From contig JBAXMQ010000009.1 in the NCBI GenBank assembly GCA_037134215.1, positions 19,197 through 51,196 of the forward strand: DNA of 32,000 nt. The letters are read 5' to 3'. Made by a program: the position numbers and the translations under genes. Position 1 is the first letter of the stretch. Each line of letters begins with the position of its first letter. This stretch comes from Betaproteobacteria bacterium. Its GTDB lineage: Bacteria; Pseudomonadota; Gammaproteobacteria; Burkholderiales; Burkholderiaceae_C. The notes under the pieces are model-generated. The model ran no database searches and was not told the DNA's origin. It saw only the letters and a list, made by a program, of their open reading frames with translations. Shown here piece by piece: positions 2,115 to 20,188 of the stretch.

Positions 2115-2807
2115 ATGGAAATGCTTCACAGTGTCGATTTCTGGATCGGCCTGCTCAAAATTGTCTGGATCAACATCATTCTCTCGGGTGATAACGCGGT
2201 GGTGATCGCACTTGCCGCTCGATCGCTCCCCGCCGAACAGCAGAAAAAGGCGGTGTTCTGGGGTTCCGGCGCCGCTGTGGCGCTGCGCATCGCCCTCACC
2301 GTGGTCGCGGCGCAACTGCTGTCGCTGTCCTTTCTGCAGATCGTGGGAGGCGCCTTGTTGCTCTGGATCGGTGTGCAGTTGCTGAGTGACGACGCAGCAG
2401 AAGACGGTGAGGCCAAGGCGCACGGCAGTTTGATGGCAGCGGTGCGCACCATCCTGATCGCCGATCTGGTGATGAGCCTGGACAACGTCATTGCCGTGGC
2501 GGCTGCGGCCAAGGGCAACATGACATTGCTGATTTTGGGTTTGGCCATCAGCATCCCGCTGGTGATTTTTGGCAGCACCTTGATGATCCGCCTGATGGAG
2601 CGCTTTCCCGTCATCGTGCTGTTGGGTGCCGGCCTGATCGGTTGGGTGGGCGGAGAAACCATCGCCAGCGATGTGGCGCTCAAGGGCGTGATGGCCGGCC
2701 ATGCCTGGCTGCATTACGCTGCGGCTGCGGCCGGCGCTGCGCTGGTCGTCGGGCTGGGGCGCTGGCTGAAACAGCGACAGGGACAGTCTGCCATTGCGGG
2801 TCACTGA
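2115..2807 (+). CDS. TerC/YjbE-family integral membrane protein
   Basis: ATG at 2115 is preceded by GGAGA (2104-2108). The 230-aa hydrophobic product carries the duplicated TerC signature (LSGDNAVVIALAA and MSLDNVIAVAAAA). Confidence 0.85.
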   Translation: MEMLHSVDFWIGLLKIVWINIILSGDNAVVIALAARSLPAEQQKKAVFWGSGAAVALRIALTVVAAQLLSLSFLQIVGGALLLWIGVQLLSDDAAEDGEAKAHGSLMAAVRTILIADLVMSLDNVIAVAAAAKGNMTLLILGLAISIPLVIFGSTLMIRLMERFPVIVLLGAGLIGWVGGETIASDVALKGVMAGHAWLHYAAAAAGAALVVGLGRWLKQRQGQSAIAGH

Positions 2808-2827: not shown

Positions 2828-3613
2828 GTGGAGTACACCTTTTGTGCTGACACCGACCTTGGTCGGGTGCGGGACAACAATGAAGATGCTGTCGCGGTGG
2901 ACCCTTCAGCCGGCCTGGCGCTGTTGGCGGATGGCATGGGGGGCTACAAGGCGGGGGAGGTCGCCAGTGGCTTGGCGATCAGCGTTATCCAACCCGAGTT
3001 GGCGCAGTGGCTGACAGAAGCCGGCAAATCGGCCAGCATTGCGCGGCTCCGTCAGGCCATCTTCGACTGCGTGGTGCGCGCCAACGGCCTGATCCTGAAG
3101 TCATCCCTCACCCATGCGGCCCATGCCGGCATGGGCACGACCTTGGTCGTCGGTGTGTTTCATGGTGAACACCTGGTGCTCGGCCATCTGGGGGATTCCC
3201 GCTGTTACCGGCTGCGCGGCGGGCATCTCGACCTGATCACGCGGGACCACTCGGTGCTGCAGGAGCGCATTGACGCTGGTTTGATCACGCCAGCGCAGGC
3301 GTTTGGCTCTGCCGACAGGCATCTGGTCACCCGGGCTTTGGGTGTCGCGCCGGAGGCCAAGCTGGAACTGCATGATTTTCCGGTCGAGCCCGGGGACCTT
3401 TACCTGATGTGCTCCGATGGTTTGTCCGACATGGTGCGGGACGACATGATCCAGAAGGTGCTGTGCCAGTCCCTGCCGCTGGAGCAAACAGCCCGGGCGC
3501 TGATTGCCCTGGCCAACGAGCAGGGAGGTCGGGACAACATCGCGGTGGTGCTGGTCCAGGCTTCCGATCGGGGCGCACGGCGCAATTTTCTGTCCAGATT
3601 GCTTGGAAGATAG
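2828..3613 (+). CDS. PP2C-family Ser/Thr protein phosphatase
   Basis: PP2C motifs are present: DLGRVRDNNED, LLADGMGG, GMGTT, GDSR and CSDGL...GGRDNI. The start is placed at in-frame GTG 2828, 9 codons before the D-x-G-x-x-R-x-x-NED motif and 20 nt after the TerC stop. The longer ORF from 2642 would overlap terC. The start is uncertain. Confidence 0.85.
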   Translation: MEYTFCADTDLGRVRDNNEDAVAVDPSAGLALLADGMGGYKAGEVASGLAISVIQPELAQWLTEAGKSASIARLRQAIFDCVVRANGLILKSSLTHAAHAGMGTTLVVGVFHGEHLVLGHLGDSRCYRLRGGHLDLITRDHSVLQERIDAGLITPAQAFGSADRHLVTRALGVAPEAKLELHDFPVEPGDLYLMCSDGLSDMVRDDMIQKVLCQSLPLEQTARALIALANEQGGRDNIAVVLVQASDRGARRNFLSRLLGR

Positions 3614-3645
3614 TAAGCTGTGCTTATGTTTAAACAGGGTGGAAG

Positions 3646-4263
3646 ATGGGGATGCCTCGGCTGATCGTGTCGATTGACGGCGACGTTGTCAAAGAGATCG
3701 TCCTGTCCAAGGCGCGCACCACCGTGGGCCGCAGACCTTATAACGACATCGTGCTCGACAACCTGGCGATCAGTGGCGAGCACGCCGTGCTGGTTATGGA
3801 CGAGCAGGCGCTGCGCATTGAGGACCTGGGCAGCACCAATGGCACGCGCGTCAATGGCGAGACTGTGCGCAACCATGTATTGCGGGATGGCGACGTCATC
3901 GCCATTGGCAAATACAGCCTGGCCCTCGCTCACCCGTTGCTGCCTGCTGCGGCCGTTTTGGCCGATGAGGCCGATGAAACCGACAGCGCGCAGCAGACAC
4001 CAAGGCCAGCGTCCATCAAGGTCATTTCAGGTCGGTCGACTGGCCGTGAACTGGCCCTGACCAAGGCCGTGACAACCCTGGGCAAGCCCAGCGTCGCGGT
4101 CGCGGCCATCACGCGCCGTCCCAACGGCTTTGTGCTGCACCACATGGAGGGCAGCGACCGGGCTGTCGTCAACGGTGTGCCGGTCGGGCCGGACGCCGTG
4201 CCCCTGGAACACGGCGACAGCATCCTGCTGGCGGGTACCACCATGCAGTTTTTGCAGCCATGA
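3646..4263 (+). CDS. FHA-domain protein with a canonical N-terminal FHA and a degenerate C-terminal FHA-like domain
   Basis: FHA1 has TTVGRRPYNDIVLDNLAISGEHAVL...GSTNGTRVNG, with the Gly-Arg, Ser-x-x-His and Asn signature residues. The second half (TTLGKPSVAVAAI...GSDRAVVNG) has the FHA fold pattern but lacks the Arg and Ser/His pThr-contact residues. The alternative start ATG 3652 has better spacing to GGGTGGA (3637-3643). Confidence 0.85.
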   Translation: MGMPRLIVSIDGDVVKEIVLSKARTTVGRRPYNDIVLDNLAISGEHAVLVMDEQALRIEDLGSTNGTRVNGETVRNHVLRDGDVIAIGKYSLALAHPLLPAAAVLADEADETDSAQQTPRPASIKVISGRSTGRELALTKAVTTLGKPSVAVAAITRRPNGFVLHHMEGSDRAVVNGVPVGPDAVPLEHGDSILLAGTTMQFLQP

Positions 4264-4330
4264 GCGGTCCTGCCTGCCAGCTTGTGCCACTGCTGGCGCG
4301 CCATCAATCCGCATCCTGAGCCATAGCCCC

Positions 4331-6580
4331 ATGCAATACCTCAAAAATCACCGCCTGCGGATCGCCGTCACCCTGATTCCCTTGGTGTTGGCCTTGATGC
4401 ACGCAGGGGGTCTGTTCAAGCTGGACCTGATCGCGCGCCTCGAAGCCATTGCCTACGATGCGCGCTTGGTCGCCACCATGCCTAAGACGCTCGATGACCG
4501 GATTGTGATCGTTGACCTCGATGAGAAAAGCCTGGCCGAGGTCGGGCGCTGGCCCTGGAGCCGCAACCGCCTGGCGGACTTGATGGACGAGCTGTTCGAC
4601 CGGCAAAAAATTGCTGTTGCCGGCTTCGACGTGGTGTTTTCCGAGCCCGATGACAGCTCCGGCCTGAGCCGCCTGAAGTCGCTGGCGCAAAACGAACTGC
4701 GCGGACAGGCGGGCTATGTCGACCGGTTGGCCCAGTTACAAGAGTCTTTGGATTACGACGGCCTGTTTGCCCGTGCCATTGCAAATCGAAAGGTGGCCCT
4801 CGCGTATTACCTGTCGAGTGACCAGAGGGGACGAACCTCGGGGACGCTACCGTCGCCCGTATTCGACGAACAGGCGCTACAGGGGCGTCAGACCCCAAAG
4901 GCCGCTTGGGACGGCTATGGATCCAACATCGATCGGTTGGCGAAGGCGGCGCCGATGGCAGGCTTCTTCAACACGCTGGAGGAGGCCGATGGCGTGGTGC
5001 GCTTTGTGCCCCTGGTGGCTGAATTTAAGGGTGGCTATTACGAATCACTGTCTTTGGTGATTTTTCGCCTGTTTGTCGGGCTGCCAGTGGTTACACCGGG
5101 TTTCCCCTCAGGCTCCCGGGCTGATGACGTCTACCAGGGGCTGGAGAGCATTCAGTTACGTCAAGGCAAACAAACCATGCGTATCCCGGTGGATGACCGC
5201 TTGGCCATGCTCGTGCCCTACCGGGGCAAGGGCGGGCCAGACGGCGGCTCGTTCCGCTATGTCTCGGCGGTTGACTTGCTGGCGAAGCGATTGCCGGAAG
5301 GCAGCCTGGCCGGCAAGATTGTGCTGGTCGGCACGACGGCCCCTGGCTTGCTGGACCTGCGCTCCGCGCCGGTGGGCAACTCTTACCCCGGCGTTGAGGC
5401 ACACGCCAACCTTATCAGCAGCCTCCTGGACGGTAAAACCCTGGTCCGGCCGGACTATGCGGTCGGTTTCGAGGTGATGCTGCTGCTGCTGGTGGGCATT
5501 CTGCTGGCTTTGGCGCTACCGGCACTCTCGGCGCTGATGGCCGTGTTGTTGAGCGGCGCCACGGTTGCCTTGATGGTCGGCCTGAACCTCTGGCTGTTCG
5601 CGTCCGCCGGCTTGGTCTTGCCTTTGGCGCTGATGGTCATCATGACCGTGATTGCTTTTGTGTTGAACATGAGCTACGGCTATCTGGTGGAAAGCCGGTC
5701 CAAGCGGGACTTGGCCCAGTTGTTTGGCAGCTATGTTCCGCCCGAGTTGGTCAAGGAAATGGTCAAAGACCCCGAAAGCTACAGCATGAAAGCCAGCAGC
5801 CGGGAGCTGACGGTGATGTTTTGCGACATGCGCGGCTTCACCAGCCTGTCGGAGACCCTGGAGCCGCTGGCGTTGCAGGCCATGCTCAATGGCGTGTTCA
5901 GCCAACTCACCAGTGTGATCCGGCGCAACATGGGCACGATCGACAAGTACATGGGTGACTGCGTGATGGCCTTCTGGGGCGCCCCGGTAGAAACCGCGCA
6001 ACACGCGCAGCTGGCGGTCAAGACCGCGCTGGAAATGACGGTGGCACTGCGCCGTATCAACGCGAACCACCGGGCCAAGGGCATCGCGGAGATCAGTCTG
6101 GGCGTGGGCCTCAATACAGGCAGCATGTGCGTGGGCGACATGGGCTCGGACATCCGGCGCAGCTACACCGTGATCGGCGACGCGGTCAACCTGGGCTCTC
6201 GCCTGGAGGGCCTGTCCAAAGTCTATGGCGTGGACACCGTGGTGAGCGAGTCCACCCGGGCACTTGCGCCGGATTTTGTCTGGCAGGAGCTCGACCGCGT
6301 GCGAGTCAAGGGCAAGGCGCAAGCTGTTGCCATCTTCTGGCCAGCAGCCGTTTTGGCAGACAACACGCCGGCCCTGAGCCGCGAGATGGCCCTATGGGCT
6401 GACTTCCTGCAAGCCTATCGGCGTCAGTGCTGGAACGACTGCGACCCGATGCTGGCAGAATTGCAACTTATCCAGCCGACCAAGGGCCTTTACAAGCTTT
6501 ACGAAGGACGCTTGGCCGCGCGTCGGGCCTTGCCCCAAGACCCGGACTGGGACGGTGCCACCAATTTCGAAACCAAATGA
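4331..6580 (+). CDS. CHASE2 sensor-domain membrane protein fused to a class III adenylate cyclase catalytic domain
   Basis: ATG 4331 is the first Met after the FHA gene stop. An N-terminal TM helix is followed by a roughly 330-aa extracytoplasmic region (CHASE2-like: VIVDLDEKSL..GRWPWSR, VGFDVVFSEPD). Three TM helices span about nt 5460-5680. The cyclase domain has VMFCDMRGFT, DKYMGDCVMAFWGAP and YTVIGDAVNLGSRLE. Confidence 0.9.
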   Translation: MQYLKNHRLRIAVTLIPLVLALMHAGGLFKLDLIARLEAIAYDARLVATMPKTLDDRIVIVDLDEKSLAEVGRWPWSRNRLADLMDELFDRQKIAVAGFDVVFSEPDDSSGLSRLKSLAQNELRGQAGYVDRLAQLQESLDYDGLFARAIANRKVALAYYLSSDQRGRTSGTLPSPVFDEQALQGRQTPKAAWDGYGSNIDRLAKAAPMAGFFNTLEEADGVVRFVPLVAEFKGGYYESLSLVIFRLFVGLPVVTPGFPSGSRADDVYQGLESIQLRQGKQTMRIPVDDRLAMLVPYRGKGGPDGGSFRYVSAVDLLAKRLPEGSLAGKIVLVGTTAPGLLDLRSAPVGNSYPGVEAHANLISSLLDGKTLVRPDYAVGFEVMLLLLVGILLALALPALSALMAVLLSGATVALMVGLNLWLFASAGLVLPLALMVIMTVIAFVLNMSYGYLVESRSKRDLAQLFGSYVPPELVKEMVKDPESYSMKASSRELTVMFCDMRGFTSLSETLEPLALQAMLNGVFSQLTSVIRRNMGTIDKYMGDCVMAFWGAPVETAQHAQLAVKTALEMTVALRRINANHRAKGIAEISLGVGLNTGSMCVGDMGSDIRRSYTVIGDAVNLGSRLEGLSKVYGVDTVVSESTRALAPDFVWQELDRVRVKGKAQAVAIFWPAAVLADNTPALSREMALWADFLQAYRRQCWNDCDPMLAELQLIQPTKGLYKLYEGRLAARRALPQDPDWDGATNFETK

Positions 6581-6593
6581 GGAGTAAGCACCC

Positions 6594-7385
6594 ATGAAAG
6601 TCCGCGTTCTTGGCTGCTCGGGAGCGATTGCGAAGAACTGTCGAACCACGTCATTCTTGTTGGATCGCGATGTCCTGATTGACGCGGGCACCGGCGTCGG
6701 CGATCTGACCCTGGAGGAAATGAGGGACATTGACCACGTCGTGTTGACCCACTCTCACCTTGACCATGTGGCGGCCTTGCCACTGATGGTCGATTCTGTG
6801 GGAGCCTTACGGACGCGACCCTTGCAGGTGCATGGGTTGCCGGAGACGGTCGATGCGCTCAAAGCCCATATTTTCAACGACGTGATCTGGCCCGACTTCA
6901 GCCGCATCCCCACGCCGGATCAACCCTTTATCCAGTTCAGCGTGATGGCCGTGGGTGACGTGCTGCAGTTCGGCGACAAAGCGGTGGAGGTGTTGCCGGC
7001 GGTCCACTCTGTGCCTGCGGTAGGCATTGCCGCCACTGGCGGCAATGGCTATTGGGTGTTCAGCGGTGACACCGGACCCAACCCTGCTTTCTGGGCCAGA
7101 GTCAACCAGCTGCCAGTGAGTGCGCTGGTGATCGAAACCGCCTTTAGCAACCGCGAGCACAGGCTGGCCCAGCTCAGCTTGCATCTTTCGCCAGCCATGC
7201 TGGCGGAAGAAATTGCCAACATCGCTGGCGACCGCCGCTTTCCGATCTACATCACCCACACCAAGCCAGCCGCGACCGAACTGATCATGCAAGAAATCGA
7301 AGTCTTCAATCAGCAAGACGGTGGCGATCAGGCGGGCTTGTACGACATTCGCTGGCTGCGGGCGGGGAAGGAGTTCAATTTGTGA
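6594..7385 (+). CDS. Class II 3',5'-cyclic-nucleotide phosphodiesterase (metallo-beta-lactamase fold)
   Basis: GAGGAG at 6579-6584 lies 9 nt before ATG 6594. The N-terminus VRVLGCSG..., FLLD..VLIDAGTG and the class II PDE signature HSHLDHV (6750-6770) are present. The start is 13 nt after the cyclase stop. Confidence 0.8.
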   Translation: MKVRVLGCSGAIAKNCRTTSFLLDRDVLIDAGTGVGDLTLEEMRDIDHVVLTHSHLDHVAALPLMVDSVGALRTRPLQVHGLPETVDALKAHIFNDVIWPDFSRIPTPDQPFIQFSVMAVGDVLQFGDKAVEVLPAVHSVPAVGIAATGGNGYWVFSGDTGPNPAFWARVNQLPVSALVIETAFSNREHRLAQLSLHLSPAMLAEEIANIAGDRRFPIYITHTKPAATELIMQEIEVFNQQDGGDQAGLYDIRWLRAGKEFNL

Positions 7386-9790
7386 ACGAGCAGCCCAAGG
7401 CGGGCGCCATGACGCCCGCCTTAGCCGAAGTTCAGGCATCGCCGATGCCGCCACCTGGCCACGCCACTGAGGCCGAGTTTTACAAAAGGCTGCAAGCCGT
7501 CACGGCGCGGATCCATGACACCGACAACCTCGACCAACTGATGCTGGACGTCAGTGAGGACATCTGCCAACTCTTCAATGCCGAGCGCCTCACGCTGTAC
7601 GCGGTCAGCCGTGATCAGACGTCCATCGTCTCCAAAATCAAGACCGGCTTGACCAGCAGCCAGGATTTGAGGTTGCCCATATCGCCACAAAGCATCGCAG
7701 GCTATGTGGCGCTGAGCAAGCAACTGCTGAATTTGCGCGATGTGTATGACGAGCAGGCCCTGCGCCGCATCCACCCGGACTTGACCTTCCTCAAAGCCGT
7801 CGACAAGGGGTCGGGCTTTCTGACACGCCAGTTGCTGGTCGCCCCGATCACCGACGGCAATAGCTTGCTGGGTGTGCTACAGATCATCAACAACCGGGAC
7901 AACCAAGTCTTCGGTGATCTGGAGGTGGACGGTGCCACCCAGCTGTGCCGGACCCTGGCCACTGCCATCCGCCAGCGTGTCGAAAGGAGCACACTGGGGC
8001 TGCGCCGCGGTACCACCAAATATGACGGTCTGGTGCAACAGGGCGTTCTGACGGCTGATGCGTTGGAACAGTGCTGGCGGCAGTCCCGTAGCGAGGGGCA
8101 AGCGGTGGAGCAGGTGATCATGTCCCGTCACAAGGTTCTACCGGCCCAGATCGGGCGCTCTCTGGCCTGGTATTTCGATGTGGCCTATGAACCGTTCAAG
8201 GCAAGCCGTTCGCGGATCGACCAGCTGCACGGCATGCTCAAGCTGGACTTCGTTGACAAGCAGGGCTGGATTCCTCTGGAAGACTCGGCTGAGGGCTTGG
8301 TCGTCATGTGTATTGATCCAGAGACGGTGCGAAGCTCGCGCATCTTGGCCCAGGTTTTTCCGCGGATCAGCCGTTTTGTGTACCGGGTGACGACCCAGGC
8401 TGAATTCCAGGCCACGCTGGCCCAAATCTTCGGCGCCGTGACAGGCGGCCTGTCGATTGATGAGATGCTGGCCGACATGGATGGCGCACTGATCGATGAC
8501 GCCGGCCTTGACGATGCCTTGGCCTCCGCTGCCGCCGACAACGAACTCGTGAAGTTTGTCAACAAGGTCATCATCGACGCTTACCAGCAAAAGGCCTCGG
8601 ATATCCATATCGAGCCCATGCCAGGCAAGCTCAAGACCGGCATTCGTTTTCGCATTGACGGCATCCTGACGCACTACATTGAGGTGCCAGCCCATTACTG
8701 GCAGGCCATGGTCACGCGCTTGAAAATCATGTGCGACCTGGACATTTCCGAGCGCCGACGGCCCCAGGACGGAAAAATCAAATTCAAAAAGTATGGCCCG
8801 CTCGACATTGAGTTACGGGTTGCCACCATTCCCTCGGCCGGCGGCTTGGAAGACGTGGTGATGCGTATCCTGCCAGCAGGCGCGCCCATACCCATCGACC
8901 AGTTGGGCCTGACAGCCCACAATTTAGAGCGCGTTCTCAGGACGATCGCCAAACCTTACGGCCTGTTCTATGTCTGCGGACCAACCGGCTCGGGCAAGAC
9001 GACCACCCTGCATTCCATACTGAGCCACTTGAACCGCCCAGACACCAAGATCTGGACCGTGGAGGACCCGGTCGAAATCACGCAAAAGGGCTTGCGTCAG
9101 GTTCAGATCAACAAAAAGGCCGGGATCGACTTTGCCATGGTGATGCGTGCCTTTTTGCGCGCTGACCCGGACATCATCATGGTGGGCGAGTCGCGTGACA
9201 AGGAAACCGTGACCATGGGCGTTGAGGCCTCGCTGACCGGTCATCTGGTGTTTTCCACCTTGCACACCAACTCGGCGCCGGAGTCGGTCACCCGTCTGCT
9301 CGAAATGGGGATGGACCCCTTTAATTTTGCCGATGCCCTGCTCGGTATTCTGGCGCAGCGACTGGCGCGCAGGCTGTGCAGTTGCAAATCGTCCTACGTT
9401 CCGGATGACGGCGAGCTGCGCTTGTTTGCCCTTGAATATGCGGAGGAACTCAGCCACTCGGCGGACTGGCTGGCCGACCCTGAAAAAGAAGTCGCCCGGC
9501 TGATTGAAGGCTGGCGGACAAGCCATGGCGAGCAGGGGCAAATCCGCCTGTACCGAGCAGTCGGCTGCGACAAATGTGCCCAGACCGGCTACAAAGGGCG
9601 GGTCGGACTGCATGAGCTCTTGATTGCAGACGCGGAGATCAAGAAGCTGATCCAGCTGCGCGCCCGGGTCGCAGACCTGTTTGCTGCCGCCGTACAGTCG
9701 GGCATGCGCACACTGAAAATGGATGGCATGGAAAAAATCATGATGGGATTGACCGACCTCAAGATGGTCAGAGCGGTGTGCATCCGTTGA
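7382..9790 (+). CDS. PilB/GspE-family secretion ATPase with an N-terminal GAF domain (GAF - T2SSE_N - ATPase core)
   Basis: GTG 7382 has AAGGAG (7369-7374) 7 nt upstream and overlaps the PDE stop (GTGA). A GAF-like region spans about nt 7480-7980. The ATPase core has Walker A GPTGSGKTTT, Walker B DPDIIMVGESRD, His box TGHLVFSTLHTN and a CSC...CDKC cysteine cluster. Confidence 0.9.
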   Translation: MNEQPKAGAMTPALAEVQASPMPPPGHATEAEFYKRLQAVTARIHDTDNLDQLMLDVSEDICQLFNAERLTLYAVSRDQTSIVSKIKTGLTSSQDLRLPISPQSIAGYVALSKQLLNLRDVYDEQALRRIHPDLTFLKAVDKGSGFLTRQLLVAPITDGNSLLGVLQIINNRDNQVFGDLEVDGATQLCRTLATAIRQRVERSTLGLRRGTTKYDGLVQQGVLTADALEQCWRQSRSEGQAVEQVIMSRHKVLPAQIGRSLAWYFDVAYEPFKASRSRIDQLHGMLKLDFVDKQGWIPLEDSAEGLVVMCIDPETVRSSRILAQVFPRISRFVYRVTTQAEFQATLAQIFGAVTGGLSIDEMLADMDGALIDDAGLDDALASAAADNELVKFVNKVIIDAYQQKASDIHIEPMPGKLKTGIRFRIDGILTHYIEVPAHYWQAMVTRLKIMCDLDISERRRPQDGKIKFKKYGPLDIELRVATIPSAGGLEDVVMRILPAGAPIPIDQLGLTAHNLERVLRTIAKPYGLFYVCGPTGSGKTTTLHSILSHLNRPDTKIWTVEDPVEITQKGLRQVQINKKAGIDFAMVMRAFLRADPDIIMVGESRDKETVTMGVEASLTGHLVFSTLHTNSAPESVTRLLEMGMDPFNFADALLGILAQRLARRLCSCKSSYVPDDGELRLFALEYAEELSHSADWLADPEKEVARLIEGWRTSHGEQGQIRLYRAVGCDKCAQTGYKGRVGLHELLIADAEIKKLIQLRARVADLFAAAVQSGMRTLKMDGMEKIMMGLTDLKMVRAVCIR

Positions 9791-9876
9791 TTGATAAATA
9801 TGGTCCGACAAGAATGTCAATTGCGCAAGAATGGGCTTGCATCGGATGTCAGAGGTGATGAATATGGCGTTTTCGG

Positions 9877-9892
9877 GCTGGCATGAATGCTG
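9877..9892 (+). promoter_or_regulatory. Sigma-54 (RpoN) -24/-12 type promoter upstream of the pilin gene
   Basis: CTGGCATGAATGCTGC matches TGGCAC-N5-TTGC at the invariant GG (9879-9880) and GC (9891-9892) with the correct spacing. It lies about 53 nt upstream of the pilin ATG. ATGTCA repeats at 9814-9819 and 9846-9851 could be enhancer-binding-protein sites. Confidence 0.5.
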
Positions 9893-9944
9893 CCAACACG
9901 ACTGCCCCAAGTCTGGTTTTGTCTCATTTACCAAGGAGTGTTTT

Positions 9945-10358
9945 ATGGAACGCAAATCACAACAGGGTTTCACCCTGATCGAGTTGATGATCGTGGTGGC
10001 CATCGTCGGCATTCTTGCGGCCGTGGCGCTGCCGGCCTATCAGGACTACACCAAGAGAGCCAAATTCACCGAGGTGGTGTCAGTCGGTACCAGCTACCAG
10101 ACCGCGGTGTCTGCCTGCGTCCAGGATCTGGGTACGCTGACCGGTTGTTCGTTGGGCACCAATGGCATTCCCGCCTCGCAGGCCACCGTGCACGTGACCT
10201 CGGTCGGTGTCACTGACGGGGTGATCACGGTCACGCCCACTGCCACCACCGATGCCGCCGCCACCCTGGTGCTGACACCAACCCTCGGTGTGGGCGCTTT
10301 AACCTGGGCCAAAACCGGCAGCGGCTGCCTGACCTCCAACCCGGTGCTCTGCCGCTAA
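9945..10358 (+). CDS. pilA: Type IVa major pilin (prepilin with an 8-residue leader)
   Basis: AAGGAG lies upstream of ATG 9945. The sequence MERKSQQG|[27 protein letters not shown] has the class III signal peptide, with Gly-1, Phe+1 and Glu+5. Two Cys pairs are present (C..C in [13 protein letters not shown] and the C-terminal [10 protein letters not shown]). Confidence 0.92.
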
Positions 10359-10376
10359 GCCAGGTCTTCCAGCGGG

Positions 10377-11960
10377 ATGCGAGCTCCGGCCACCCCTGCG
10401 TTGGGCGACTTGGCACCAACCCGGTGGCCGCTTGCCTGGGGCCAGTCGGTCGTGATGCTGGCTTTGCTGTTGCCCTGGGTCAATCCTTTTGCACCTTTCC
10501 CGTCGTCGGCGGTGGTGCAGAGCCTGCTCAGTGTTGCGGGTCTGGCCCTGTTGCTTTTGCTGCCACTGAAGCGTGACGGGGTCGCAGTTTTGGCGCAAAC
10601 CAACGCGTCAGTCTGGTTGTGCGCGGCGCTGCTGAGTTGCGTGTTGGCGCCGATCCAGTATTTCGGCGCTTCAGCCGCCTGGTTTCCCTGGGTCAACGGC
10701 ACGGCGGCGGGGGAGGCGTTTGCCAATCTGCGCCAGCGCAACCAATTTGCCACGCTCACCAGCATCGGCTTGCTCGCGCTGATCTGGGTGCAGGCCTGCG
10801 GTCAACCCCAAGCGCGCTTTCAGACGCAAGGCCGGTTGCCAGCGCTGGCTGTCTCGCCCGCGCCGGCCTGGGCTGCCGCCGCGCTGCTGGCGGTCGGCAA
10901 TGCGCTGTCATCCTCCCGCACCGGCTTGTTGCAGCTTTTGATGATGTCGGCGCTGCTGCTGGGCTGCCGCTCGTGGCGCAACGCTCAGGCGCTCCGGCTG
11001 CTGCTGGTCGCCGTCATGGCCTATCTGGCCGCACTGCTGGTGATGCCCTGGCTGGCTGGCTTCGCCTTCGCTGAATCTGGCATGCTGTCCAGACTGCGAG
11101 AGATCGAAAGCTCGTGCCAGGCCCGTTCCCAGCTGTGGCGTAATGTGATTTACCTGATTGCCCAGCGACCCTGGGCGGGTTGGGGTTGGGGCGAGCTCGA
11201 CTACGCGCACTTCATCACGCTCTACCCCGGGCCGCGCTTCTGCGACATTCTGGACAACGCCCACAACCTGCCCTTGCATCTGGCGGTGGAATTGGGTTTA
11301 CCGGCTGCCCTGGGTATTTGTGGGCTGGCCCTGTACCTGATGGTGCGCGCCCAACCCTGGCGCGAAGCCGATCCCACCCGGCAACTGGCCTGGGGCGTGC
11401 TGGCCATCATTGGCGTACACAGCCTCCTGGAGTACCCACTCTGGTACGGACCCTTCCAGCTTGCTTTTGGGGTGTCTTTGACCTTGTTGTGGCTGACGGG
11501 CTCACGCTTCCCGGCCCCGCCCGCCGATGTCCTGGCCACGGTCTACAGCGGGGCCCGTGGCTGGCTGGCACGTGCCATGGTTGCCATTGGCCTGGTGCTG
11601 GCCACCGCCGATGTCGCTCTGGACTATGTTCGGGTTCACCAGTTTTACCTGCCGCTGGCAGATCGCGCCAGCCTGTACCGCAATGACACCTTGGCAACCA
11701 CCTCCCGCTCGGGCTGGTTCGCCCACTGGGTGGACTTTGCCGAGCTGACCACCACGGTGCCCGATGCGTACAACGCCGCGCGCCTGCAAGCCATGGCCGA
11801 GCGACTGTTGCATGTGTCGCCTGAGCCGCGCGTGATTGAAAAGCTCATTGACACCGCCCTCCTGCAGCAGCAGGCAGAGCGCGCACAGTTTTACCTGGTG
11901 CGCTACCAAGCGGCGTTCCCGAGGGAGCATGCGGACTGGCTCAGGCGCCATCCGGGGTAA
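10377..11960 (+). CDS. PglL/O-antigen-ligase (Wzy_C) family polytopic membrane protein; likely pilin/protein O-oligosaccharyltransferase
   Basis: The gene starts 18 nt downstream of the pilin stop. It encodes a multi-TM protein with a Wzy_C-type loop (SSSRTGLLQL, WAGWGWGE, DNAHNLPLHLAVELG) and a soluble C-terminal tail like that of PglL-type enzymes. The start is uncertain; ATG 10377 is taken. Confidence 0.75.
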   Translation: MRAPATPALGDLAPTRWPLAWGQSVVMLALLLPWVNPFAPFPSSAVVQSLLSVAGLALLLLLPLKRDGVAVLAQTNASVWLCAALLSCVLAPIQYFGASAAWFPWVNGTAAGEAFANLRQRNQFATLTSIGLLALIWVQACGQPQARFQTQGRLPALAVSPAPAWAAAALLAVGNALSSSRTGLLQLLMMSALLLGCRSWRNAQALRLLLVAVMAYLAALLVMPWLAGFAFAESGMLSRLREIESSCQARSQLWRNVIYLIAQRPWAGWGWGELDYAHFITLYPGPRFCDILDNAHNLPLHLAVELGLPAALGICGLALYLMVRAQPWREADPTRQLAWGVLAIIGVHSLLEYPLWYGPFQLAFGVSLTLLWLTGSRFPAPPADVLATVYSGARGWLARAMVAIGLVLATADVALDYVRVHQFYLPLADRASLYRNDTLATTSRSGWFAHWVDFAELTTTVPDAYNAARLQAMAERLLHVSPEPRVIEKLIDTALLQQQAERAQFYLVRYQAAFPREHADWLRRHPG

Positions 11961-12052: not shown

Positions 12053-14398
12053 ATGGATAACAAACACGTGCGGTTTGGCAGCGGACAGGCTGTGCTCCGT
12101 ATCGAAGACGACAAGCTGCTCACAGGTCAGGGGCGATTTACGGACGACCTCAGCGATGACCAGGGCTACTCCGATCATCTTCGCCTGTGTTTTGTCCGCT
12201 CACCCTACCCGCATGCCCGTGTTCTTGGCGTCGACAAACAAGCGGCTCTGGCCATGCCGGGCGTGGTCGCTGTGTTTGACGGTGCGGACCTGGTCGCTGC
12301 TGGCGTCAAACCGATTCCCGGCCCGGCCGCGTTCAAACGCGCTGGTGGTGCGCCCAGCGTCACCCCCCTGCGCCGGCCTTTGGCTTTTGAGCGGGTGCGC
12401 TATGGGGGTGAGGCGGTGGCGGTGGTACTCGCCAACACGCTGGAGCAGGCGCGCGACGCGGCAGAAGCGGTGGTGATCGACTACGAGGAACTGCCGATGG
12501 TGGTGGACCTGCAACAGGCGGTGGCTGCCGGCGCGCCGCTGGTGTGTGATGAGGCGCCCGACAACATTGCAGCAGAGATGCGCCACGGCGACGCCGGGGC
12601 CACGGCGCAGGCCTTCGCCTCTGCAACGCATGTGGTGGCTCTGGACCTCAGCAACCAACGGCTGGCGGCGCTGACGCTGGAGCCGCGCTCCGTGCTGGCG
12701 CTGGTTGACCCGAGTGATGGCCGTCTGGTGGTGCGCATGAGCACCCAGATGCCCTCGGGCATCAAGACCTCGCTGTGCAAAGACATTCTCGGCCTGTCGC
12801 GCGACCAGGTGCGGGTGACGGTGGGCGACGTGGGAGGCGGCTTTGGCATGAAAGGCGGCATCCACCCCGAAGATGCGGTGACGGCCTGGTGTGCCTGGAC
12901 ACTCAAGCGGCCAGTCAAATGGATTGCCGAACGCAGCGAAGAGTTTCTCAGTGGTGCCGCCGGTCGTGACATCGAGAGCAGGGCCGAGTTGGCCCTGGCG
13001 GCGGATGGCCGGATTTTGGCCCTGCGCGTGCATACCCTGGCCAATGTCGGTGCCTATGCCTCCGGCACCGGTGTTGCCATTCAGTTGCTGATCGGCCCCT
13101 GGGTACAGACCAGCGTCTATGACATCCAGACCATCGACTTTCACTTCAAAGCGGTGCTCACCAACACCGCCACGGTCGGCGCCTACCGTGGCGCTGGTCG
13201 TCCGGAGGCCATCTACATCATGGAGCGCTTGATGGACGAGGCCGCACGCCAGACCGGCATCGACCGGGTCGCACTGCGACGGCTCAATCTGATCCGACCC
13301 GAGCAGATGCCCTACAAGAATCCAATGGCGCAGGTGTACGACAGCGGCCGCTTTGAGCATGTGATGGACCAAGGCCTGGCCTTGGCCGACTGGGGCGGGT
13401 TTGCCGGGCGTGAGGCCGAGTCAGCGCGGCACGGCAGGTGGCGCGGCCTGGGCATCGCCACGTTTCTCGAGTGGACTGGCGGCAATGTTTTTGAGGAGCG
13501 CATGACGGTCACGGTGTTGGCCGAGGGCGTGATTGAGGTTTTTTCTGCGGTGAACGGCATGGGGCAAGGCATTGCCACCTCGCTGGCTCAGTTGGTGGTG
13601 GATGTGTTTGACGTGCCGCTTGAGCAAGTGCGTGTGGTGTTGGGCGACACTGACCGTGGCGAGGGCTTTGGCAGCGCCGGCTCGCGCTCGATCTTTGTGG
13701 GTGGCTCGGCGGTCAAAGTGGGCGCCCAGCGCACGGTGGACCATGTGCGCAACATGGCTTCCAGCGCGCTGGAGGCCTCGGTACAAGACATCGACTACCG
13801 GGCCGGGCGCTTCCAGGTCAAGGGCACCGACCTGGGCATTGGGCTGTTCGAGTTGGCGTCTCGCCAGCCGGATGGGCAAATTTTCTTCGAGTCCACCAGT
13901 GCGGTCAGCGGTCCATCATGGCCCAATGGTTGCCATGTGTGCGAAATTGAGCTCACGCCCGAAACCGGAGAGGTGGCGGTGGTGGCCTACGCGTCGGTGA
14001 ATGATGTGGGCAAGGTGGTTAACCCGCCCATTGTGATCGGTCAGCTCGACGGTGGGGCCATGCAAGGTATCGGGCAGGCGCTGATCGAGCAGGTGGTGTA
14101 TGACGCGCAAAGCGGCCAGCTACTGACCGGCAGCCTGATGGACTATGCCGCGCCGCGTGCCGACATGACGCCACCCTTCCTCACCACGATGGACCAGTCC
14201 ACGCCTTGCCTGAACAACCCGTTGGGTGTCAAAGGCGTAGGCGAGCTAGGCACCATCGGCGCGACACCCTGTGTGGTCAACGCTGTGGCAGATGCCCTGG
14301 CCCGCCATGGCCATGGCCACAGAACGGCGCAATTGCAGATGCCTCTCACACCTGCGCGCCTGTGGGCCTTGCTGCAAACCCATGGCCCCGGGCTGTAA
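12053..14398 (+). CDS. Xanthine dehydrogenase/aldehyde oxidase/CoxL-family molybdopterin-binding large subunit
   Basis: The 781-aa product has an N-terminal RIEDDKLLTGQGRFTDD (a/b hammerhead), the AYRGAGR motif at 13181-13201 and a C-terminal GVKGVGELG. Confidence 0.9.
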   Translation: MDNKHVRFGSGQAVLRIEDDKLLTGQGRFTDDLSDDQGYSDHLRLCFVRSPYPHARVLGVDKQAALAMPGVVAVFDGADLVAAGVKPIPGPAAFKRAGGAPSVTPLRRPLAFERVRYGGEAVAVVLANTLEQARDAAEAVVIDYEELPMVVDLQQAVAAGAPLVCDEAPDNIAAEMRHGDAGATAQAFASATHVVALDLSNQRLAALTLEPRSVLALVDPSDGRLVVRMSTQMPSGIKTSLCKDILGLSRDQVRVTVGDVGGGFGMKGGIHPEDAVTAWCAWTLKRPVKWIAERSEEFLSGAAGRDIESRAELALAADGRILALRVHTLANVGAYASGTGVAIQLLIGPWVQTSVYDIQTIDFHFKAVLTNTATVGAYRGAGRPEAIYIMERLMDEAARQTGIDRVALRRLNLIRPEQMPYKNPMAQVYDSGRFEHVMDQGLALADWGGFAGREAESARHGRWRGLGIATFLEWTGGNVFEERMTVTVLAEGVIEVFSAVNGMGQGIATSLAQLVVDVFDVPLEQVRVVLGDTDRGEGFGSAGSRSIFVGGSAVKVGAQRTVDHVRNMASSALEASVQDIDYRAGRFQVKGTDLGIGLFELASRQPDGQIFFESTSAVSGPSWPNGCHVCEIELTPETGEVAVVAYASVNDVGKVVNPPIVIGQLDGGAMQGIGQALIEQVVYDAQSGQLLTGSLMDYAAPRADMTPPFLTTMDQSTPCLNNPLGVKGVGELGTIGATPCVVNAVADALARHGHGHRTAQLQMPLTPARLWALLQTHGPGL

Positions 14399-18400: not shown

Positions 18401-19537
18401 TTAGACAATGGCAAAATTTTCGGTGCCGGCACCCAAATTCTGGGATCTGGCGCGCTGGCTGTTGAGTTTGATTTGCAGACGCAGGTCGTTCACCGAGTCG
18501 GCATTGCGTAGCGCATCTTCGTAGGTGATGGATTCGGCTTCAAAGGCATCGAACAAGGCCTGGTCAAAGGTCTGCATGCCCATGTTGCGGCTCTTCTTCA
18601 TGACCTCCTTGATTTCTGCCACTTCGCCCTTGAACACCAGATCGGAAATCAGGGGTGAGTTCAGCAAAACCTCGACGATGGCCGCGCGACCCTTGCCGCT
18701 TTGTTTGGGGACCAGCCGTTGCGAGATGATGGCCTTGAGGTTCAAAGACAAATCCATCAGCAACTGGGCCCGTCGCTCCTCAGGGAAAAAATTGATGATG
18801 CGGTCCAGCGCCTGGTTGGCACTGTTGGCGTGCAGGGTGGCCAGGCACATGTGGCCGGTTTCGGCGAAAGCCACCGCATGTTCCATGGTTTCGCGGTCGC
18901 GGATCTCGCCCATCAGGATCACATCGGGCGCCTGACGCAGCGTGTTCTTCAGCGCGGCATCCCAGTTGTCAGTGTCGAGGCCGACCTCGCGCTGAGTCAC
19001 CATGCAGTTTTTGTGCGGGTGCACGAACTCGATCGGGTCCTCGATCGTGATGATGTGGCCGTAGGACTGCTCATTGCGCCAGTCCACCATGGCCGCGAGC
19101 GTGGTGGATTTGCCAGAGCCGGTGGCGCCGACCAGGATGCAAAGACCGCGCTTGGCAATCACCACGTCCTTGAGCACCTGGGGCACACCCAAGCCATCGA
19201 TGGTGGGCACCGTGGTGGGAATGGCTCGCAGGACCATCCCCGCCTGGTTCTGTTGGACAAAGGCATTGACCCGAAAGCGACCGATGCCCACCGGAGAAAT
19301 CGCGAAATTGCACTCCTTGGTGGTCTCGAATTCGGCCGCCTGCCGGTCGCTCATGACCGCGCGCACCAGAGCGCCGGTCTGGGTGCCGTTGAGCCCGTCG
19401 GCCGAGAGCTTGGTCATTTTCCCGTCCACCTTGATGGCGGGCGGAAAGCCGGCCGTGATGAACATGTCACTGCTCTTGCGGCTGAGCATCAACTCCAGCA
19501 ATTGCCGGACGAAGTCGTAGGCCTGTGTCGTTTCCAT
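18401..19537 (-). CDS. pilU: PilU-type twitching-motility ATPase (PilT paralogue)
   Basis: AAGGAG lies 5 nt upstream of the ATG. The 378-aa product has Walker A GATGSGKSTTLA, DVILMGEIRD and TGHMCLATLHAN. It lacks the PilT AIRNLIRE motif. Confidence 0.9.
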   Translation of the reverse strand: METTQAYDFVRQLLELMLSRKSSDMFITAGFPPAIKVDGKMTKLSADGLNGTQTGALVRAVMSDRQAAEFETTKECNFAISPVGIGRFRVNAFVQQNQAGMVLRAIPTTVPTIDGLGVPQVLKDVVIAKRGLCILVGATGSGKSTTLAAMVDWRNEQSYGHIITIEDPIEFVHPHKNCMVTQREVGLDTDNWDAALKNTLRQAPDVILMGEIRDRETMEHAVAFAETGHMCLATLHANSANQALDRIINFFPEERRAQLLMDLSLNLKAIISQRLVPKQSGKGRAAIVEVLLNSPLISDLVFKGEVAEIKEVMKKSRNMGMQTFDQALFDAFEAESITYEDALRNADSVNDLRLQIKLNSQRARSQNLGAGTENFAIV

Positions 19538-19558: not shown

Positions 19559-20188
19559 TCAGACTCGGTCACTGAGGCGGGCGCCCACCACCCGCAGGCG
19601 CAGAGACATCTTGCGCGCCAGCAGTGACATGAGTCCGGCAACCAGTTCGGAATCATTCGCCAGCATGCGATTCATGGCGTCGGCTGTCAGCACCGCCAGT
19701 TCGCACCGGCTGCGCGTGACACAGCTGGAGAACCGCACACCGCTGTCGAGCAGCGACATTTCACCCAGCATCTCGCCGGGCACCACCTCGGCCAGGCGCA
19801 GGCGTTCGCCCCACGATTGCGTGCGCTCCACGGCGACCCGGCCCGTCAACAACACCACCATGTAGTCGCCATGCTCATCCTGGCGGATGATTTCCTGATC
19901 GGGCGGTACAAGGGAAAAATTCAGGAAATCCTTCATGCGCCCGATGGTCCGCTGGTTGAGCTGACCCATGTGTTTGTCCATGCCCCACAAGGCCTGCAAC
20001 TGACCCATGCCCACGCCCGCATTCATCGGCTCAGCGCCGATGTCGATGGCCCGGGCTTCCCAGGGGACCGCACGCCGGTTATCGGCCGCGAGTGGGTCCA
20101 GCGCGGTGCCGAACAGCCGCTGAACCACGGGCTCTTCCTTGGCCTGAAGTCCGAGTTTTTCGCCGATCTGACGGAGGATCTCTTTCAT
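19559..20188 (-). CDS. Cyclic nucleotide-binding (CAP_ED) domain protein with an unassigned roughly 85-aa N-terminal region
   Basis: The 209-aa product shows the beta-roll pattern IIRQDEHGDYMVVLLTGRVAV...VPGEMLGEMSLLDSGVRFSSCV. The gene lies 25 nt after the pilT stop and 21 nt before the pilU start, with GGAG upstream of its ATG. Confidence 0.8.
   Translation of the reverse strand: MKEILRQIGEKLGLQAKEEPVVQRLFGTALDPLAADNRRAVPWEARAIDIGAEPMNAGVGMGQLQALWGMDKHMGQLNQRTIGRMKDFLNFSLVPPDQEIIRQDEHGDYMVVLLTGRVAVERTQSWGERLRLAEVVPGEMLGEMSLLDSGVRFSSCVTRSRCELAVLTADAMNRMLANDSELVAGLMSLLARKMSLRLRVVGARLSDRV

Follow-up and report, generated by a model that had tools for sequence, protein, structure and literature searches.

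Organization of the locus

The 32-kb stretch of DNA analyzed here (the window), from a freshwater betaproteobacterium, contains a run of seven plus-strand genes (positions 2828-11960; domains assigned with Pfam) that includes a predicted adenylate cyclase, a predicted cyclic nucleoside monophosphate (cNMP) phosphodiesterase (PDE), and an ATPase of the PilB/GspE/PilF family that carries a GAF domain (hereafter GAF-PilB). In order, the genes encode (i) a PP2C-type Ser/Thr phosphatase, (ii) an FHA-domain protein, (iii) the membrane-bound cyclase with a CHASE2 sensor, (iv) the PDE, (v) GAF-PilB, (vi) a prepilin, and (vii) a PglL-like ligase. The same seven genes, with their coordinates and gaps, had been listed in an original prediction made from the sequence of the window, together with a TerC gene 20 nucleotides (nt) upstream, and all of these were confirmed by the open reading frame (ORF) listing, Pfam, and a check of the junctions.

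The gene for the TerC-family membrane protein (2115-2807, plus strand; Pfam TerC 3e-48) ends at 2807, and from there onward the junctions measure 20, 32, 67, 13, -4, 154, and 18 nt. The negative value is a GTGA overlap of the PDE stop codon with the ATPase start; because of this overlap and a good ribosome-binding site, the PDE and the ATPase appear to be translationally coupled. Good ribosome-binding sites also precede the FHA, PDE, and pilin genes, and a plus-strand search for intrinsic terminators detected no hairpin of this kind in any gap between the module genes. No Rfam family and no tRNA was found within the window.

The window covers part of the core chromosome of a Rhodoferax-like bacterium of the Comamonadaceae, reaching from sucCD to the yggS-side pilT/pilU genes, and the nearest named relatives of its ATPase are Rhodoferax proteins. 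TerC is the upstream neighbor, part of an ancestral sucCD-TerC context, and lies outside the signaling module; sucCD-TerC likewise stands before the module in Comamonadaceae-type loci. An origin from a mobile element or plasmid was considered and rejected, given the absence of a plasmid match and the fixed core position after sucCD.

Conservation of the neighborhood

When one genome from each GTDB species was scanned with a three-sequence N-terminal alignment, whose patterns reached only Betaproteobacteria, at least 80 loci were returned, all from Betaproteobacteria and with 43-82% identity in the N-terminal region. Gene presence around them was determined by tblastn anchoring with the window proteins and three reference loci, complemented by Pfam, and upstream counts refer to the 63 loci, one per species, that have 7 kb or more of upstream sequence. 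An MBL-fold (metallo-beta-lactamase-fold) or PDE gene adjoins GAF-PilB in 61 of these 63 loci and a CHASE2 cyclase is present in 54, so the grouping of cyclase, PDE, and GAF-bearing ATPase that the original prediction had pointed out is a recurrent one. The association of the cyclic-nucleotide enzymes with the ATPase is not a matter of chance.

Three architectures were distinguished. In the Comamonadaceae (type A), the order is sucCD-TerC-[kinase]-PP2C-FHA-cyclase-PDE-GAFPilB-pilin-PglL, where the kinase is a CHASE2 Ser/Thr kinase. In the Rhodocyclaceae (type B), for example in Ca. Desulfobacillus denitrificans (AP021857; locus L025), it is sucCD-kinase-PP2C-FHA-cyclase-PDE-cNMP_binding/rhodanese-GAFPilB-GAF-HD-GYP-pilin; in L025, the protein with cNMP_binding and rhodanese domains is encoded at 8849-9916, between the PDE and GAF-PilB, and the GAF and HD-GYP protein, of the cyclic di-GMP (c-di-GMP) phosphodiesterase type, at 12334-13998, after GAF-PilB. 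In the Oxalobacteraceae (type C), a cyclase and a GAF-HD-GYP gene on the minus strand are followed by an MBL gene and GAF-PilB on the plus strand, at times with a GAF-less paralog behind it. The window module is a reduced type A, and tblastn found neither a GAF-HD-GYP gene in the 32 kb nor a cNMP_binding/rhodanese gene in the module.

GAF-HD-GYP genes occur in 47 of the 63 loci, and the GAF domain of the co-located protein is itself of the cNMP type (PDE5 at 7e-21; hhalign 99.1% to A1, the profile of GAF-PilB N-termini described below). Since this GAF domain is also of the cNMP type, several outputs of the fuller modules would share one kind of sensor, which hints at cross-talk between cyclic AMP (cAMP) and c-di-GMP in those fuller modules only.

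Outside the Betaproteobacteria, five loci were sampled, two from Nitrospinota and three from deltaproteobacteria, and in none of these five was a cyclase, PDE, or pilin gene found near GAF-PilB. In Nitrospinota (L081 and L124), a double-GAF form of the ATPase has a conserved context, beside genes for gyrase/topoisomerase IV-type subunits and with topA and dprA downstream. Genes for pili or cyclic nucleotides are absent from its vicinity, and the link to DNA uptake through dprA may be a coincidence. Because GAF-PilB is an orphan elsewhere, the fusion itself appears to be old and widespread, and the cAMP and phosphothreonine (pThr) neighborhood a betaproteobacterial elaboration. The neighborhood proposed in the original prediction is therefore found again in Comamonadaceae, in Rhodocyclaceae and, rearranged, in Oxalobacteraceae, but not at the five loci beyond this group.

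The GAF domain of the ATPase

GAF-PilB (7382-9790, plus strand) combines a GAF domain, a degenerate MshEN/T2SSE_N region, and a T2SSE ATPase domain (Pfam T2SSE 4e-113, MshEN 5e-6). The GAF domain comprises about residues 48-197 (Pfam GAF 2e-10). A phmmer search with the N-terminal 385 residues against 1.84 billion representative sequences returned 175 clusters (at 50% identity) at E<1e-30 and 828 at E<1e-10, with Nitrospinota and Deltaproteobacteria among their members; the matches include full-length proteins of 746-808 residues as well as double-GAF forms of about 950-1100 residues. Database labels for these proteins read only 'GspE/PulE family protein' or 'putative GAF sensor protein'.

The profile A1, built from 18 diverse N-termini and searched against the PDB sequences, gave its best match with CyaB2 (1ykd; 5e-39), followed by PDE5 (9e-27), PDE10A GAF-B (2e-24), PDE2A (7e-23), and then PDE6, with cNMP GAF domains reaching down to 1e-17. 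It also matched the cAMP-binding GAF domain of Lcd1 (about 5e-19 or better) and that of the HD-GYP protein PmGH (2e-23), whereas bilin-binding, histidine-kinase, and PtsP GAF domains scored 7e-12 or weaker. The window GAF domain by itself matched CyaB2 GAF-B at 6e-21 and PDE2A GAF-B at 2.5e-12. PDE2A contains a ligand-binding GAF-B and a nonbinding GAF-A, and the window domain distinguishes between the two, with 43 bits for GAF-B versus 5 bits for GAF-A.

An AlphaFold 2 model of the domain reached a mean predicted local distance difference test score of 82.4, with a core above 90, and a predicted template modeling score of 0.77. Foldseek aligned this model to many GAF structures with a probability of 1.00 and TM-scores of 0.6-0.7, the top matches being PmGH (PDB 4mcw, ranked first), CyaB2, PDE10A, PDE2A, PDE6, and cAMP-bound Lcd1; by structure alone, other GAF domains, such as PtsP and bilin-binding ones, were also retrieved. 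By its sequence and structure matches, the window GAF domain thus resembles the cNMP-binding type.

Among 156 single-GAF family members, Y73, S104, F136, D141, T148, G164, N170, and F177 show little or no variation, and the same holds for a Lys or Arg at position 172. In the alignment with PDE2A, D141 and T148 lie on the segment VDDSTGFRT, which contributes contacts to cGMP. The NKFDE motif, reported as necessary for cNMP binding (PMC6151459, PMC4937426), corresponds to N170, R172, F177, E181, and V182 in the window protein. The motif is complete in deltaproteobacterial members; the Rhodoferax clade has the form N-(N)K/R-F-E-V, with a valine in place of the last acidic residue.

This departure from NKFDE, together with the non-cNMP GAF domains retrieved in the structure search, bears on a different assignment of the cAMP receptor, in which CAP-type proteins (or a CRP-like regulator) would read cAMP, while the GAF domain would bind another ligand or serve only for dimerization, leaving the motor without direct gating. 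Such proteins are at hand: a cNMP_binding gene, with or without a rhodanese domain, lies between the PDE and GAF-PilB in 31 of the 63 loci and could encode the real reader, and the window itself has a cNMP-binding gene between pilT and pilU. Given how many relatives have a CAP-type protein at this position, the GAF domain need not be the only reader, and the claim of the original prediction that it is a cNMP receptor is upheld as regards its type, with CyaB2, PDE2A GAF-B, PDE5, and PDE10A as closest matches, but not as regards its being the sole receptor. Yet the sequence profile sets cNMP GAF domains (about 1e-39 to 1e-17) apart from the others, the window domain matches the binding GAF-B of PDE2A and not GAF-A, and the neighboring HD-GYP enzyme bears the same type of GAF domain. 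Moreover, the PDE and GAF-PilB form the most invariant pair of the neighborhood, and they persist together where the CAP-type gene is missing, as in the window. We therefore regard a motor that is not directly gated as rather improbable.

The MshEN-like region and the ATPase core

The MshEN-like region spans about residues 210-352 and the ATPase domain residues 385-796. In MshE-type ATPases, c-di-GMP is bound through two copies of a 24-residue motif, RLGxx(L/V/I)(L/V/I)xxG(L/V/I)(L/V/I)xxxxLxxxLxxQ, for which Wang et al. 2016 (PMC5013675) also give a relaxed form. A search by regular expression, run without a positive control, found neither the strict nor the relaxed form in the window protein, and an equally uncontrolled search for the relaxed form found none in 240 relatives (120 close and 120 distant). 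The A1 profile does match the N-domains of PilF and MshE. Gating by c-di-GMP through the MshEN region was rejected because neither published form of the motif is present; taken together with the cNMP type of the GAF domain, this absence favors a cNMP-type sensor having replaced c-di-GMP sensing.

The ATPase core has a Walker A motif (GPTGSGKT, residue 533), an Asp box (EDPVE, 561), a Walker B motif (DPDIIMVGESRD, 595), and a His box (TGHLVFSTLH, 619), as well as four cysteines (C666, C668, C729, and C732). Of the tetracysteine cluster usual in such ATPases (CxxC...CxxC), the first pair reads C-S-C in the window protein (9377-9385), whereas the family alignment has CxxC; the second pair is encoded at 9566-9577. 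Which filament this core serves is less clear from its similarities. It scored below the NCBIfam equivalog cut-offs for both PilB (TIGR02538; 460.4 vs 675.65) and GspE (TIGR02533; 437.8 vs 630.25), and its PDB matches are nearly level, with 346 bits for PilF, 328 for Myxococcus xanthus PilB, 317 for Geobacter PilB, and 316 for EpsE. The sequence cannot assign the ATPase to PilB over GspE, nor to pilus extension, and the designation 'PilB-type motor' in the original prediction is to that extent not established. Since several PilB paralogs are possible in Comamonadaceae, as with the three that Ramlibacter has for one pilus machine (PMC3164672), GAF-PilB is probably an accessory, signal-gated paralog.

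A tandem second ATPase of the PilB family follows GAF-PilB in some Oxalobacteraceae-type loci (L027, L069, and L071) and in one Nitrospinota genome, with coordinates of 10981-12765 in L071, 8288-10072 in L027, and 10888-13182 in L124. In Massilia, this paralog is GAF-less and shares 58% identity with the C-terminal 590 residues of the window protein. No PilC, PilM, or PilD was identified among the annotated ORFs of the window or among the annotated neighbors at the related loci.

Predicted synthesis and hydrolysis of cAMP

The cyclase gene (4331-6580, plus strand) encodes a predicted membrane class III adenylate cyclase with a CHASE2 sensor (Pfam CHASE2 1e-51, Guanylate_cyc 2e-24). The best PDB match of its catalytic domain is Pseudomonas aeruginosa CyaB (3r5g; 1.6e-32), and alignment with this structure locates (i) the metal-binding Asp499 and Asp543, (ii) the ATP-specifying pair Lys539 and Asp603, and (iii) the transition-state residues Asn620 and Arg624. 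Because all of these are present, adenylate cyclase activity is predicted for the protein, with CHASE2 as its extracytoplasmic sensor. Among 64 orthologous cyclases, the Lys is retained in 61 and the Asp in 58.

The cyclase also matches PADLOC models of PycC (best 7e-28), and the cNMP-binding proteins weakly match the cNMP-binding parts of Pycsar effector models, which would fit a Pycsar-like defense against phages located by chance close to pilus genes. These matches are, however, generic ones at the level of domains, with no TIR or transmembrane effector among the genes; the cyclase combines a CHASE2 sensor with the Lys/Asp pair for a purine (ATP), and the genes keep a stable core position after sucCD in many genera, as opposed to a variable island, with no plasmid match. 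A defense function was on these grounds essentially excluded and is in our estimate extremely improbable.

The next gene (6594-7385, plus strand) encodes a compact MBL-fold protein, predicted to be a class-II-like cNMP PDE (Pfam PDEase_II 9e-14, Lactamase_B_2 5e-13). At 263 residues, it is shorter than the characterized class II members (about 340-370), and its PDEase_II match, at 51.8 bits against a cut-off of 23.7, covers only residues 45-106. As a single sequence, its best PDB match is the class II yeast enzyme PDE1 (3.8e-10, residues 39-103), and a profile of 13 sequences again retrieved yeast PDE1 (4ojv; 4.4e-14), now over positions 45-236 of 255. All 13 orthologs tested passed PDEase_II. 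The window protein carries the class II signature HxHLDH as HSHLDH at residue 53 and a PDE1-like block, FNDVIWPD, and it has a weak relationship to Apyc1, an MBL-fold enzyme that degrades cyclic nucleotides.

Could the enzyme instead be another MBL hydrolase, similar to RNase Z or the like, with a secondary association with the cyclase? No NCBIfam model scored above threshold; the top matches there were RNase Z models, far under their cut-offs, and the cyclic-nucleotide PDE model reached only 36.6 against a cut-off of 400. The short span of the Pfam match also leaves room for this explanation, as do the retention of the PDE at loci without a cyclase and the Oxalobacteraceae counterpart, which gives no PDEase_II signal. 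That counterpart belongs to another MBL subfamily (20-22% identity, with HSHWDH in place of the class II motif) and lies directly upstream of GAF-PilB, at 9042-9935 in L075, 7140-8030 in L071, and 4389-5336 in L027; in these three loci, the position is conserved and the MBL enzyme is swapped. For the window protein, PDE1 is nevertheless the top PDB match by sequence and by profile, the profile match spans most of the protein, and PDEase_II is passed throughout the orthologs, with HxHLDH and FNDxIWPD present and Apyc1 as a weak relative. A hydrolase of another kind is thus quite improbable, and we assign the protein, with moderate confidence, as a compact class-II-like cyclic-nucleotide PDE.

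The phosphothreonine layer

Upstream of the cyclase, the window has genes for a Stp1-like PP2C-type Ser/Thr phosphatase (2828-3613, plus strand; Pfam PP2C_2 5e-14) and an FHA-domain protein (3646-4263, plus strand; Pfam FHA 3e-25). The phosphatase scored 223.6 bits against the NCBIfam model Stp1_PP2C (cut-off, 230), and its motifs RDNNED, DGMGG, GTT, GDSR, CSDGL, and GRDNIA are intact. In the second protein, the FHA domain is N-terminal, followed by an uncharacterized C-terminal half, and it carries the pThr-binding residues GR (28), SGEH (43), and STNGT (63). Orthologs of the two are paired in 44 of the 63 related loci.

In most relatives, a CHASE2 plus Hanks-type Ser/Thr kinase is encoded directly upstream of the PP2C-FHA pair, for example at 1445-4108 in L025 and at 4872-7595 in Rhodoferax ferrireducens T118 (CP000267; locus L084); overall, the kinase accompanies PP2C and FHA in 35 of the 63 loci. 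The CHASE2 sensors of kinase and cyclase share about 26% identity and, since each enzyme has one, both carry the same type of extracytoplasmic sensor. A tblastn search with the L025 kinase found no kinase domain in the 32-kb window, where the kinase is cleanly lost and PP2C follows TerC after 20 nt. The pThr checkpoint that the original prediction had read into the PP2C and FHA genes is therefore real in the relatives, which have the kinase, and incomplete in the window, which does not. As for a conserved phosphoacceptor Thr within the disordered tail at the N-terminus of the ATPase, T29, just before the first helix, is frequent but not decisive, and we make no claim for it.

Pilin genes and the link to type IV pili

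Downstream of GAF-PilB lies a gene for a type IVa major-pilin-like prepilin (9945-10358, plus strand; Pfam N_methyl 5e-11, Pilin 1e-7), with an eight-residue leader (MERKSQQG|FTLIE), the expected G-1, F+1, and E+5, and the cysteine pairs Cys58/Cys68 and Cys128/Cys136. It is followed after 18 nt by a gene for a PglL/TfpO-like O-oligosaccharyltransferase (10377-11960, plus strand), a candidate pilin glycosylase whose three Pfam domains lie above their cut-offs (PglL_A 4e-9, Wzy_C 3e-17, Wzy_C_2 8e-39).

The 154-nt gap before the pilin gene had been said to hold a sigma-54-like promoter, and a sigma-54-type -24/-12 element, CTGGCATGAATGCTGCC, is indeed present at 9877-9893 on the plus strand. In 15 of 27 related loci, the pattern [CT]TGGCA[CT]-N5-[CT]TGC[ATC] recurs at a distance of 53-103 nt before the pilin gene, where 0.012 matches per 310 nt would be expected. 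Because the pilin gene has this conserved promoter of its own, it and the PglL-like gene would form an at least partly separate sigma-54 unit. The single transcription unit of the original prediction accordingly survives as a conserved neighborhood of cyclase, PDE, and GAF-bearing ATPase, but does not extend firmly to the pilin, which was detected downstream in 25 of the 53 loci with at least 5 kb of downstream sequence. The order sucCD-(TerC)-pilA-pglL also occurs in Ralstonia, and the signaling genes and GAF-PilB would on this basis have been inserted upstream of a pre-existing pilin locus. With the module lying between sucCD-TerC and the pilin gene, the adjacency of the pilin may in part reflect the insertion site.

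At the other end of the window, on the minus strand, pilT (20214-21257) and pilU (18401-19537; T2SSE) flank a gene for a CAP-type cNMP-binding protein of 209 residues (19559-20188; cNMP_binding 1.5e-18). The order of these three genes is kept in 17 of 17 orthologous loci from metagenomes, in which the cNMP-binding protein (48-100% identity) has diverged far more rapidly than pilT (89-99%) and pilU (73-99%). Its phosphate-binding cassette, GEMSLLDSGVRFSS, keeps the Arg, which is followed by Phe instead of the usual Ser or Thr. Because a cNMP-binding gene is maintained between pilT and pilU, cyclic nucleotides are independently tied to the same pilus system in this lineage, and the protein may constitute a second cyclic-nucleotide input to it.

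These findings bear on whether GAF-PilB, if cNMP-gated, works on the pilus at all. It might drive another type IV filament (a type II secretion system, a competence pseudopilus, or an MSHA-like pilus) or be a regulatory paralog, its adjacency to the pilin being an accident of where it was inserted, between sucCD-TerC and pilA. The scores of the ATPase below both the PilB and GspE cut-offs, with equal nearness to the PilF, PilB, and GspE structures, would allow this, and no pilin gene adjoins it in R. ferrireducens T118 or in Oxalobacteraceae. The Nitrospinota proteins beside gyrase, topA, and dprA point the same way, as do the three PilB paralogs reported for Ramlibacter and the GAF-less tandem paralogs in Massilia. 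Against it, Comamonadaceae- and Rhodocyclaceae-type loci repeatedly have a pilin gene in the same orientation no more than about 0.2-5 kb downstream of GAF-PilB; the annotated neighbors include no secretin, GspF, or pseudopilin genes; and the gene between pilT and pilU links cNMPs to the same pilus. We hold a different filament or a regulatory role to be unlikely, although not negligibly so.

One further gene of the window, on the minus strand (25274-27562), encodes a hybrid histidine kinase whose domains stand in an unusual order, HisKA-HATPase_c-GAF-REC, so that the GAF domain sits between the kinase core and the receiver.

A model for direct gating of the ATPase by cAMP

The interpretation that we favor, and hold to be somewhat probable, is that the window carries a reduced copy of a conserved betaproteobacterial module in which cAMP directly gates a GAF-bearing ATPase of the PilB/GspE family. 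In this model, the membrane adenylate cyclase, with its extracytoplasmic CHASE2 sensor, would make cAMP, and the class-II-like MBL-fold PDE, translationally coupled to the ATPase, would remove it. Binding of cAMP to the GAF domain would allosterically switch the hexameric ATPase, as cAMP and cGMP do in CyaB2 and in PDE2 and PDE5, and the ATPase would most likely be an accessory, signal-gated extension motor of the type IVa pilus whose pilin and PglL-like glycosylase genes follow directly, under a sigma-54 promoter of their own. PP2C would be the phosphatase and FHA the reader of a pThr layer whose CHASE2 Ser/Thr kinase has been lost here, and in the fuller modules, cAMP may also reach the GAF-HD-GYP c-di-GMP phosphodiesterase and the CAP-type/rhodanese protein. 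The gene content and its synteny, the integrity of the catalytic motifs, the cNMP character of the GAF domain, the ATP-type residues of the cyclase, and the lack of a c-di-GMP motif are established here, whereas we infer that the GAF domain binds cAMP, in which direction the regulation runs, that the pilus is the output, and what the pThr layer acts on.

Several observations weigh against this model. Nine of the 63 loci lack the cyclase and yet keep the PDE, and the R. ferrireducens T118 locus, which reads kinase-PP2C-FHA-PDE-GAFPilB, has neither cyclase nor pilin. In Oxalobacteraceae, the MBL enzyme is of another subfamily, and the five loci outside the Betaproteobacteria have no cyclase, PDE, or pilin gene near GAF-PilB. 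In the window, the pThr layer is without its kinase, and in the Rhodoferax clade the last acidic residue of NKFDE is missing. A CAP-type protein could be the real reader in about half of the loci; the ATPase falls short of the equivalog cut-offs and is not assignable to pilus extension by its sequence; and the pilin, found downstream at fewer than half of the loci, has its own promoter and may owe its place to the insertion site. Judged against these points, direct cAMP gating of the ATPase is plausible.

A more far-reaching form of the model is tentative, and we give it somewhat less credence than the core proposal. Here, cAMP or cGMP on the GAF domain would switch pilus extension within seconds, converting a CHASE2-sensed signal into mechanical output and integrating the pThr input; the fuller modules would add c-di-GMP hydrolysis, and retraction would be mirrored by the cNMP-binding protein of the pilT-pilU locus.

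Relation to known systems

The module has partial counterparts in several characterized systems. MshE- and PilB-type ATPases, such as Vibrio cholerae MshE and P. aeruginosa PA14_29490 (PMC5013675), share with the window protein the ATPase family, an N-terminal second-messenger sensor, and the MshEN/T2SSE_N fold. The window protein differs in lacking the 24-residue c-di-GMP motif and in bearing an additional cNMP-type GAF domain before the MshEN-like domain; its neighbors, moreover, are an adenylate cyclase and a cNMP PDE instead of GGDEF or EAL proteins. A post-translational input of a nucleotide messenger to the extension ATPase is also known from FimX-PilZ-PilB of Xanthomonas (PMC10333796). 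There, separate adaptors and c-di-GMP are used, whereas the window ATPase is itself fused to a sensor domain, one of the cNMP type.

With the CyaB/CpdA/Vfr circuit of P. aeruginosa, the module shares a link between cAMP and type IV pili, and CyaB is the closest solved cyclase. In Pseudomonas, the transcription factor Vfr mediates the response, CpdA is a class III PDE, and the sensor of the cyclase is MASE2. In the window, by contrast, the cyclase sensor is CHASE2 and the candidate receptor is built into the ATPase, so that the control implied would be post-translational.

The GAF domain itself is of the subtype found in CyaB1, CyaB2, and the mammalian enzymes PDE2, PDE5, PDE6, PDE10, and PDE11, with which the ATPase shares the logic of an N-terminal GAF that would regulate a C-terminal catalytic domain. 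The NKFDE motif is in large part present, with Val replacing its final Glu in the Rhodoferax clade. The output of the module is, however, an AAA+ hexamer of the PilB/GspE family and not a cyclase or PDE, and, unlike the tandem GAF domains of those enzymes, the betaproteobacterial proteins have a single GAF domain, with tandem forms in Nitrospinota. The GAF-HD-GYP protein PmGH (PDB 4mcw), whose GAF domain is the top Foldseek match to that of the window, corresponds to a gene type present in 47 of the 63 relatives but not in the window. As to the pThr layer, the relatives have the same triad of sensor kinase, PP2C, and FHA as PpkA/PppA/Fha1 of the P. aeruginosa H1 type VI secretion system, likewise beside an envelope-spanning machine. 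The window differs in lacking the kinase, the relatives in that their kinase sensor is CHASE2, and the machine is represented by a PilB-family ATPase, not by a type VI secretion system.

Full-text searches of the literature turned up no paper on a PilB/GspE ATPase fused to a GAF domain, nor any on the module, most papers in subscription journals being outside the coverage of that search. We regard the module as a real, conserved, and apparently uncharacterized variant of the second-messenger-gated type IV filament ATPases.

Implications

To our knowledge, the nucleotide controls described for type IV pilus motors are limited to c-di-GMP, acting through MshEN or FimX-PilZ, and to transcriptional control by cAMP-Vfr. 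A motor with a built-in sensor of the cAMP/cGMP type, whose writer and eraser genes are its neighbors in more than 50 species, would represent a new and fast mode of control. Under the more far-reaching form of the model, it would also be the first type IV filament ATPase found to be under allosteric control by a mononucleotide second messenger. The module would be directly testable on a GAF domain of 180 residues and in culturable hosts, namely R. ferrireducens T118 and isolates of Massilia and Duganella, and natural variants without the cyclase, the kinase, or the CAP-type protein exist. The module further suggests cross-talk in which cAMP, c-di-GMP, and Ser/Thr phosphorylation converge on one machine, and it would provide a likely function for a large unannotated family of 175 clusters that includes members from Nitrospinota and Deltaproteobacteria.

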